From: Escherichia coli
Lineage (GTDB): Bacteria; Pseudomonadota; Gammaproteobacteria; Enterobacterales; Enterobacteriaceae
Reading direction: 5' to 3' (one strand)
Assembly: GCF_011045215.1 (NCBI RefSeq)
Contig: NZ_CP049201.1
DNA: 64,000 nt
Part shown: piece after piece, positions 43,901 to 46,900 of the stretch
Layout of the letters: each line of letters starts with the position of its first letter
Numbering within the stretch: position 1 is the stretch's first letter
Position numbers: made by a program

Positions 43901-46900
43901 AAGCCAACGCGCAAGCCACCAATGCGGTTATTCCACCGGCCAGAATGCCTGATAACTGATTTAGCGATCAGTTTCGGTGATCCACAGTTGGCCGCCTTCC
44001 ATCCACGCCAGCCACTGACCATCCGGCGAGAAGACCACGGCGTCCGCAGAAGGTGGATTGGCGTGGTTTTCGGTTAAATACTCAACCTCGCCGCTTTGCG
44101 CATGGGCACAAGCAATTCGATTACCCAGCACAAAGCCCAACCATTCTCCTGACGGATGCCAGTTAAATGCAGACTGAATATCCGTTTTGTTATGGGTTAA
44201 CTGGCGCGGCTCGCCGCCCTGTGGCGAGATAAGCCACAGTTGCACAATGCCGTTATCATCTCGCATTAAAAACGCGATTTGCGTACCCTGCGGATTACAG
44301 CGCACCCAGTGGCGCGGGACGTTGACTAACCCCGGATAAGCCCGATGGTGGGTAAAGGTTAAACGTCGCTGCACGACGCCACGCGGTGGCGCGGGCAGGG
44401 TTGTTTCCGTTCCACTTAACGGCGCATCACCTGCTGCTTTCCAGCCAGCTTCATCTTGCGGTAACTCAACGATAAACAGCTCCGGCACTTTCTCGCCCTT
44501 TGGCGAAAGCGTATCGCCAATAAACGCCAGCGCGTGATTTCCTACCCATCCTTCTTCATAAGCACGATTGATTTCATCGCTGCCAGGCTGCGGCGTGGGC
44601 GTTGTTTTACTCACCAGTGCGCACCAGTGGCTACCGCTGTATTCACGCGGATGCTGCTTTTGTACGTTGACCGGGCCAAACGGTGCAGCAACCCCGACGT
44701 TTCGCAAATCCAGCGCCGAATCGAGCTGATGCATTACATGGTCGTTATAGGTAAAGCTCACCCTTTCACCGTCCGGGCTAAAGACATGTACATGGCTGCC
44801 GCCGCGCAGCGCTCCTGGGGTGTACGGTGCAGTAATATCCATTGCATCGAGATTGCTCACCTTGCCGCCTTCAGCAATGACTCCGCGTCGATGATGGAAA
44901 TCGTAATGCCATGTTTCATCAGGATTTTCAGGGCCGTGAATAAAGACATATTTATCTGACTTCGGATGAACGGTCACCACGCCGACGTGTGCGCCCTGTG
45001 ACGCGCGATAGATAACCTCGACCTCGCCGGTATGGATATTCACACGCTCAATGGTCTCGCCGGTAAACGACGCCCCAGAAGGACGCACGTCAAATACCAG
45101 CCACTGGCTGTCGGGCGTCCAGGTATTGGTATTAGTGAGCAGGTGATTGCGGGGAGCAAAGGTTATCTGTTTCATGGCGTGGTCCTGATACAAAACGGTT
45201 CCCGCCATCATACTTCACAAGGACTTCACTTTCAGACAATAGTCTTTTGCCATCGTGATGAATGTGAGTGAAAAGATGGAACATTTCGACGTGGCGATTA
45301 TTGGCCTCGGCCCGGCAGGATCGGCGTTGGCACGAAAGTTAGCAGGCAAAATGCAGGTGATCGCGCTGGATAAAAAGCACCAGCATGGTACTGAAGGTTT
45401 CAGCAAACCTTGTGGCGGTCTGCTGGCACCGGACGCGCAGCGATCTTTTATTCGCGATGGGCTGACGCTTCCTGTCGATGTGATCGCTAATCCGCAGATT
45501 TTCAGCGTCAAAACCGTCGACGTCGCCGCATCGCTCACACGTAACTACCAGCGAAGCTATATCAATATTAATCGCCATGCTTTCGACTTGTGGATGAAAT
45601 CGCTGATCCCCGCCAGCGTTGAGGTTTATCACGACAGCCTGTGTCGAAAAATCTGGCGTGAGGATGATAAATGGCATGTCATTTTTCGTGCAGACGGTTG
45701 GGAGCAGCATATTTCTGCCCGCTATCTGGTCGGTGCCGATGGTGCCAACTCGATGGTGCGGCGGCATCTCTACCCGGATCATCAAATCCGTAAATATGTC
45801 GCTATCCAGCAGTGGTTCGCAGAGAAACATCCGGTGCCGTTCTACTCCTGCATCTTTGATAATGCGATAACTGACTGTTACTCATGGAGTATCAGCAAAG
45901 ACGGTTATTTTATCTTTGGCGGTGCCTATCCAATGAAAGACGGTCAGACGCGTTTCGCGACGCTGAAAGAGAAAATGAGCGCCTTTCAGTTCCAGTTTGG
46001 TAAGGCGGTAAAAAGCGAAAAATGCACGGTGCTATTTCCCTCACGCTGGCAGGATTTTGTCTGCGGTAAGGACAACGCCTTTCTGATTGGTGAAGCGGCG
46101 GGATTTATCAGCGCCAGCTCGCTGGAGGGGATAAGCTATGCGCTGGATAGCGCAGAGATTCTGCGTGCAGTGTTTCTGAAACAGCCGGAGAAGAGCAACG
46201 CCGCTTACTGGCGCGCCACCCGCAAACTGCGTTTAAAACTCTTCGGCAAGATAGTAAAAAGCCGATGCCTGACCGCACCGGCTTTAAGAAAGTGGATTAT
46301 GCGCAGTGGTGTGGCGCATATTCCACAGTTGAAAGATTATCCAACGTGCTTCACATCGCCCACCAGCAGGATGTAAGAGAGCGCGCCAATCAACGCGACG
46401 GCGGAGATATAAACCAGTGCCGGGGCGAACCCATAGCCTTGCAACAGATATTAGTCCACAAAAAAACACCTCATAAGAAAAGGTCTTATATCGGGCAGAA
46501 ATCTGAAAAGGGAGATCAGGCGCTAAACAGGAGGGAAAGAAGAGTATGCTTTCAACGGCTTAGCTACTCGTTTAAAGGATTAATCATGAATTTGAATTTT
46601 AAGGGATTTTTTAAGGCTGCCAGTTTATTCCCACTGGCGCTGATGCTTTCAGGCTGTATCTCGTATGCTCTGGTTTCCCATACCGCAAAGGGTAGTTCAG
46701 GAAAGTATCAATCGCAGTCAGACACCATCACTGGGCTATCGCAGGCAAAAGATAGTAATGGAACAAAAGGCTATGTTTTTGTAGGGGAATCGCTGGATTA
46801 CCTTATCACTGATGGTGCCGATGACATCGTTAAGATGCTCAATGATCCAGCACTTAACCGGCACAATATTCAGGTTGCCGATGACGCAAGATTTGTTTTA

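Follow-up and report, generated by a model that had tools for sequence, protein, structure and literature searches.

Gene order and the interval missing between cbrA and yidX

The DNA analyzed here, referred to as the window, is a stretch of 64,000 nucleotides from Escherichia coli (contig NZ_CP049201.1 of assembly GCF_011045215.1), in which the dgo operon for D-galactonate catabolism is missing from its place between cbrA and yidX and a 3' remnant of dgoT is left behind. The gene order in this part of the window is ibpA-yidQ-yidR-cbrA, followed by a gap and by yidX-yidA-yidB-gyrB, which is the order of K-12, save that only K-12 holds dgoT-dgoD-dgoA-dgoK-dgoR between cbrA and yidX. On the left, cbrA (45276-46376, plus strand) encodes a colicin M resistance lipid reductase of 366 codons, as delimited from the list of open reading frames (ORFs), its translation, and alignment to K-12 and O157; on the right, yidX (46586-47242, plus strand) is an intact gene of 218 codons for a putative lipoprotein, identified from the ORF list and the K-12 annotation. 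The end of cbrA and the start of yidX are 209 nt apart, close to the 200 bp or so given in a preliminary description of this DNA, and the K-12 annotation agrees with that description in placing the five dgo genes at this position.

Pairwise BLAST of the window against the K-12 locus (L001) and the K-12 chromosome was combined with blastn and tblastn searches using the K-12 dgo genes and proteins. Two collinear blocks meet at the junction, in which window 46100-46442 corresponds to L001 4202-4544 and window 46444-46800 to L001 9298-9653. On a larger scale, window 37286-46442 matches K-12 3,861,387-3,870,543 and window 46444-64000 matches K-12 3,875,297-3,892,852; the K-12 interval absent from the window is 3,870,544-3,875,296, i.e., 4,753 bp. 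The alignment to the K-12 cbrA-dgoT and dgoR-yidX junctions, by which the preliminary description had proposed to locate the breakpoint, places it in a zone at 46444-46450 with homology on both sides. The deleted DNA comprises dgoT codons 1-393 and the whole of dgoD, dgoA, dgoK, and dgoR. It also takes in 136 of the 277 bp that separate dgoR from yidX; this lost part of the spacer is the dgoR-proximal one, which includes the dgo promoter, and three GTAGTAC/GTACTAC repeats start inside it (L001 9229, 9272, and 9293). These repeats are taken to be putative DgoR operators, being equated here with the inverted-repeat binding sites of DgoR reported in PMC12288454. What is left of the spacer consists of a divergent portion distal to the three repeats (46451-46490), a homologue of L001 9303-9345 that aligns to it with a gap and with roughly 65-70% identity, and of the kept yidX upstream region (46491-46585, plus strand), which is ~99% identical to K-12. 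Homologues of dgoD, dgoA, dgoK, and dgoR were not found by tblastn anywhere in the 64-kb window, in which the remaining matches were distant MFS paralogues (21-25% identity), two of them being uhpT and uhpC, and a 19-residue chance match to DgoA.

The dgoT remnant occupies 46337-46450 on the minus strand and comprises the stop codon and the last 37 codons of the gene, as identified by blastn and tblastn against K-12 dgoT, by translation, and from the RefSeq annotation of relatives. Its DNA matches the K-12 dgoT 3' end over 46337-46442 (blastn, 106 nt, 91.5%, E=2e-36), and the protein match runs on to 46450, covering DgoT residues 394-430 at 94.6% identity (tblastn, E=1.7e-14). The preliminary description, which had put the remnant at roughly 37 codons with homology stopping abruptly at about 46450 and had named failure to align to dgoT as one observation that would overturn the loss, is borne out by these matches. 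The translation of the remnant, 37 residues in length, is preceded by an in-frame TAA directly upstream, and the fragment has neither a start codon nor a promoter, the dgo promoter having been deleted. A functional dgoT is expected to provide an ORF of ~430 codons with a 12-transmembrane MFS core. Because only 35-37 codons are left, with no start codon and no promoter, the remnant is a pseudogene fragment and no member of the functional D-galactonate:H+ symporters (ACS family of the MFS). The equivalent stump is labeled by RefSeq as 'hypothetical protein; incomplete; missing N-terminus' in O157:H7 TR01, 33F4, 06-00048, and F8111.

The remnant had also been described as convergent with the cbrA end and slightly overlapping it, and the two do lie on opposite strands with a 40-nt overlap, compared with 4 nt in K-12. 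The larger overlap is due to a change in the cbrA stop codon, which is TAG in K-12 and O157 but TAT in the window (46338-46340), and the frame consequently stays open for another 11 codons, into the dgoT remnant. A cbrA of the same 1101 nt appears in the annotations of 33F4 and of the dgo-positive strain SCU-116; since it also occurs in the latter, the TAT variant is a standing polymorphism that is independent of the deletion.

Comparison with other genera supports the dgo operon at this locus as the ancestral arrangement, from which the dgo-less state is derived by deletion, since outgroups keep dgo at the locus and the dgoT stump persists in the window. Mislabelled Klebsiella pneumoniae and Enterobacter hormaechei chromosomes carry ibpBA-yidQ-(yidR)-dgoTDAKR-(yidA), and the Salmonella arrangement is yidA-dgoRKADT; together with the stump alignment, this synteny agrees with the earlier claim that the operon was lost, leaving a dgoT 3' remnant. 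The reverse order of events, in which the dgo-less arrangement would be ancestral and other E. coli would have gained the operon by insertion at the cbrA-yidX site, draws on the mobility of dgo as a 5.0-kb module (K-12 L001 4423-9422, almost exactly the cbrA-yidX interval) that is found on a plasmid and in an island flanked by insertion sequences (ISs). However, an empty site would lack the 37 in-frame dgoT 3' codons, and the same neighborhood houses dgoTDAKR in Klebsiella, Enterobacter, and Salmonella. Moreover, among the 5,426 complete E. coli genomes that formed the survey set, dgoDAK is present in 5,021 (absent from 405), and an intact dgoR-yidX boundary is present in 5,020. Insertion is therefore highly improbable, the remnant and the outgroup synteny effectively refuting it.

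Distribution of the deletion allele and predicted loss of D-galactonate catabolism

Across the survey set, a 901-bp query spanning the junction was contiguous in 412 genomes, and a 90-mer centered on the junction gave a single end-to-end match in each of 413, with identities of 95.6-100% (100% or 98.9% in 61 carriers and 95.6-97.8% in the others). Partial matches of the 90-mer were not found in any of the complete E. coli genomes outside these 413. Carriers include O157:H7 EDL933 and Sakai, O55:H7, O145:H28, O169:H41-related strains, and various animal isolates; the named serotypes (O157:H7, O55:H7, O145:H28, and O169:H41) are ones that we take to represent phylogroup E. The 90-mer of the window recurs unchanged (100% identity) in O157:H7 TR01 and O145:H28, and in Sakai and EDL933 its identity is 97.8%. 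The closest complete genome over 12 kb is that of the calf isolate 33F4 (99.1%), which shares both the junction and the cbrA variant with the window. Since the junction 90-mer is fully matched in 413 of the 5,426 genomes, the O157:H7 reference strains included, the deletion is inherited and lineage-wide and not peculiar to the window strain.

Recurrent independent deletions at a hotspot, by which the deletion of the window strain would be an event of its own, could be argued from the loss or pseudogenization of dgo structural genes in several natural isolates, reported in PMC12288454, and from the unequal counts of genomes lacking dgoDAK (405) and of junction carriers (413), which imply that other genotypes exist. 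Against this, a 90-mer containing a tract that is not known from dgo-positive genomes is fully matched at 95.6-100% in all 413 carriers, the sites that vary in three carriers are all off the breakpoint, and the window junction is identical to those of O157:H7 TR01, O145:H28, and Escherichia sp. E1V33, which leaves independent events with very little probability. Still less credence is given to a collapse of the region during assembly or scaffolding. Nothing specific speaks for such an artefact, and the same junction recurs in 413 genomes finished independently of one another as well as in a draft from another species.

In O157:H7 Sakai, cbrA (ECs_4630) and yidX (ECs_4631) are adjacent, as in the window, and the O157:H7 (Sakai, EDL933), O55:H7, O145:H28, and O169:H41 carriers share with it the breakpoints, the dgoT stump, and the divergent tract described below. 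Unlike the O157:H7 loci, the window has the TAT (no-stop) variant of cbrA along with single-nucleotide polymorphisms of its own. The deletion has been present in the O157:H7 reference genomes since their sequencing, and the stump is annotated there as a partial pseudogene.

D-Galactonate is degraded by way of 2-dehydro-3-deoxygalactonate and 2-keto-3-deoxy-6-phosphogalactonate (KDPGal) to pyruvate and glyceraldehyde-3-phosphate. The locus no longer provides DgoT (transporter), DgoD (dehydratase), DgoK (kinase), DgoA (KDPGal aldolase), or DgoR (repressor). Because the transporter and the three pathway enzymes are deleted, the cell is predicted as likely to be unable to grow on D-galactonate, provided that no ectopic dgo module lies outside the window. 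Such modules do exist: the 5.0-kb dgoTDAKR segment, 97% identical to that of K-12, is found on the conjugative IncFIB/IncI plasmid pMTY9754_NA1 (AP026488.1; L012 6985-11982) and in a chromosomal island of E. coli SMS-3-5 (L016 7352-12074), and ectopic modules on IncF/IncI plasmids or in a chromosomal island occur in about 115 complete E. coli genomes. The ectopic module adjoins remnants of IS200/IS605, IS2, and IS66 and a cluster encoding an aspartate ammonia-lyase, a C4-dicarboxylate transporter, and a racemase.

The divergent tract and the origin of the allele

When the window is compared with dgo-positive E. coli, identities of 98% or more extend to 46420 and resume at about 46491, but identity collapses in the ~70 bp between (46421-46490). 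In the dgoT part of this tract (46421-46450, minus strand), 9 of the 30 bases differ from every sampled dgoT of dgo-positive E. coli, including K-12, JNE151685, SCU-116, and the plasmid copy. The neighboring 84 nt of the remnant (46337-46420) are identical to K-12 at 81 positions, and at the rate set by these 3 differences the probability of nine or more in 30 is ~7e-7. Seven of the nine differences fall on third codon positions and are synonymous, all within ten consecutive codons (P=0.008 if random among positions). Over the same 30 nt, the window and K-12 are identical at 21 positions, and K-12 is identical to Salmonella, Klebsiella, and Enterobacter at 22-23, which puts the window about as far from K-12 as these genera are. 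The tract still encodes the Escherichia-type QGYGFAP; in the DgoT comparison, QSYGF is the Salmonella type and QDYGF the type of Klebsiella, Enterobacter, and Pantoea. A sequence of 13 residues was found in none of the 120 best DgoT homologues and in none of the sampled cluster members.

Alleles of the window type were also sought beside the breakpoints of intact operons. Two chimeric queries, which joined window flank to K-12 dgo interior, recovered none on either side in ~5,010-5,020 dgo-positive genomes, all alleles returned being K-12-like; with the chimera of the window up to 46442 and K-12 dgoT beyond, the best dgo-positive match still had all six differences within 46421-46439. The plasmid and island copies of dgo were considered as a source of the tract and rejected, since their dgoT ends are of the ordinary E. 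coli type, with 21 of 30 bases in common with the tract. Carriers vary at the edge of the tract: Sakai-type O157 has K-12 bases at 46421 and 46424, 06-00048 has the bases of the dgo-positive SCU-116 at the same two positions and an extra change at 46430 that matches neither, and at 46436 the K-12 base is found in F8111. Such variation is what erosion of the tract by recombination, proceeding inward, would produce.

The synonymous and periodic pattern reads, on the nucleotide comparison, as that of a functional gene diverged under purifying selection and not as decay that followed the deletion. The opposite explanation supposes that a dgo haplotype of the ordinary E. coli type underwent the deletion in situ and attributes the ~70 bp to mutational decay or error-prone repair; it can point to the nature of the tract, which is a pseudogene and intergenic DNA and as such free to drift, and to the fact that no donor sequence was found. 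However, third-position synonymous changes make up seven of the nine on the dgoT side, only three changes are found in the adjoining 84 nt of the pseudogene, lineages that differ by about 8% have an identical tract, and the carrier variants are mostly bases of dgo-positive E. coli alleles instead of added decay. In situ decay is therefore regarded as improbable. For the preferred reading, that of a diverged functional gene, the deletion would have arisen on a dgo haplotype of roughly intergeneric divergence, which may have come from a xenologous replacement or from an unsampled lineage. The flanks would later have been homogenized by recombination with dgo-positive E. coli, and of the original background the ~70 bp linked to the junction may be the only part to survive.

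At the junction itself, neither an IS element, nor its inverted-repeat scar, nor a direct or inverted repeat was found in the interval searched (46200-46700), and the junction creates no terminator or promoter above the shuffled expectation. No carrier genome has more than one copy of the junction sequence. The left alignment reaches 46442 as DNA and 46450 as protein, the right one begins at 46444, and the two overlap in the 7-nt junction zone ACAGATA (46444-46450). This heptamer can be read in the dgoT frame as Tyr-Leu, and an alignment with two small gaps also relates it to the spacer beside the last GTACTAC repeat; it may represent a microhomology at the breakpoint. We propose that a single ancient deletion of ~4.75 kb removed dgoT codons 1-393, dgoDAKR, and the proximal spacer, and that the window strain inherited this allele. 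Because the junction lacks an IS element or repeat, illegitimate recombination appears the most likely mechanism, possibly across the ACAGATA microhomology.

Taken together, we regard it as very probable that the window carries one old deletion shared with its O157:H7 relatives, that the cell should have lost the ability to use galactonate with it unless an ectopic module is present, and that the tract is the footprint of a divergent haplotype. Several points weigh against this combined reading. The donor of the tract was not found in exact-pattern scans of species representatives and metagenomes: the tract 24-mer was in no intact dgoT among the representatives of 100,044 species, an exact-match search in which one mismatch would be missed, and metagenome scans gave 0 matches both when an intact Gly codon was required upstream of the tract and when a GTACT operator half-site was required upstream of the right-hand tract, each being an exact pattern by which a near match would be missed. 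Thirty bases are a small sample, and one codon change within it, from Ala to Leu (GCG to TTG), has no explanation. The possible microhomology presupposes a progenitor sequence that was not found, as the ACAGATA heptamer is absent from both sides in K-12-type alleles. At least eight junction carriers also hold dgoDAK somewhere (413 + 5,021 > 5,426), and because of these genomes and of the ectopic modules the phenotype prediction is conditional. Finally, a literature search on a dgo deletion or a galactonate phenotype in O157 or phylogroup E returned no explicit description.

The tract 24-mer occurs in one of the 100,044 species-representative genomes, that of Escherichia sp. E1V33, which itself has the same junction. 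In E1V33 (NZ_RHJI01000002.1; L006 10540-10790), the junction sequence is identical to that of the window, and the two genomes are ~92-93% identical across 14 kb. Within 46399-46798, they differ by 4-5 mismatches per 200 bp, which forms a patch of ~0.4 kb of unusually low divergence in a pseudogene and an intergenic stretch that would be expected among the most divergent parts. Since the junction is identical and the patch nearly so despite a background of ~92-93%, we infer that the deletion allele crossed the species boundary by homologous recombination. More tentatively, and with less than even confidence, the allele may be an old loss allele derived from an intergenerically divergent dgo that moved by recombination between E. 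coli of the O157/O145 group and the cryptic E1V33 lineage. In that scenario, the ~70-bp footprint may have been whittled down nearly to the shortest stretch that cannot be unlinked from the deletion by recombination. If such repeated horizontal spread is true, losing D-galactonate catabolism would be favored in some niche, e.g., the ruminant gut. The E1V33 remnant also has an internal stop (CAG to TAG, at the equivalent of 46369).

Relation to known loci and other features of the window

The best-known counterpart of the locus is dgoRKADT of K-12, which is repressed by DgoR and occupies the same position between cbrA and yidX; in comparison, the window is without the transporter, the enzymes, the regulator, the promoter, and the operator repeats. 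According to PMC12288454, several natural E. coli isolates lack the structural dgo genes or have them pseudogenized yet keep dgoR. These isolates and the window are alike in that galactonate catabolic potential was lost within the species; they differ in that the window is without dgoR and the operator region and hence has no orphan regulator. The plasmid and SMS-3-5 modules cover almost the same 5-kb interval but represent a gain or duplication elsewhere, beside IS elements. Beyond the routine there is, as a small extra, only the foreign-looking footprint at the junction and its occurrence in a second Escherichia species.

D-Galactonate use has been linked to gut adaptation in mouse-evolution experiments, which are cited in PMC12288454, and because of that link the fixed loss of dgo in a lineage that contains enterohemorrhagic E. 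coli is a modest ecological pointer. The junction sequence provides a convenient and highly specific marker of the carrier lineage for polymerase chain reaction or k-mer typing, and the locus may serve as a small example of a deletion allele traveling by homologous recombination.

Downstream of the junction, the yidX-yidA-yidB neighborhood shows unusually deep allelic divergence within E. coli. The yidX-yidA-yidB segment of SCU-116 (L004) is ~90% identical to window 46444-49623, with 28 gaps, and the yidB 3' end together with the sequence downstream of it (48198-48398) has 19-24 mismatches per 200 bp even in comparison with close relatives. A megablast query of 40000-52000 had matches at a median of 39 sites in each E. 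coli genome, owing to which a short, highly repeated element, presumably of the repetitive extragenic palindromic (REP) type, is placed within that interval.

Elsewhere in the window, a 7-kb segment between adeD and uhpT (10647-17617) is absent from K-12 and encodes a LacI-type regulator, a phosphotransferase system (PTS) IIC component of the cellobiose family, a GH1 6-phospho-beta-glucosidase, and a LamB-like porin. The intervals 1-4667, 5946-6786, 22793-26190, and 36796-37286 have no counterpart in K-12 3,818,000-3,900,000; the third of these, which lies between uhpA and ilvN, holds three large ORFs with no NCBIfam match.

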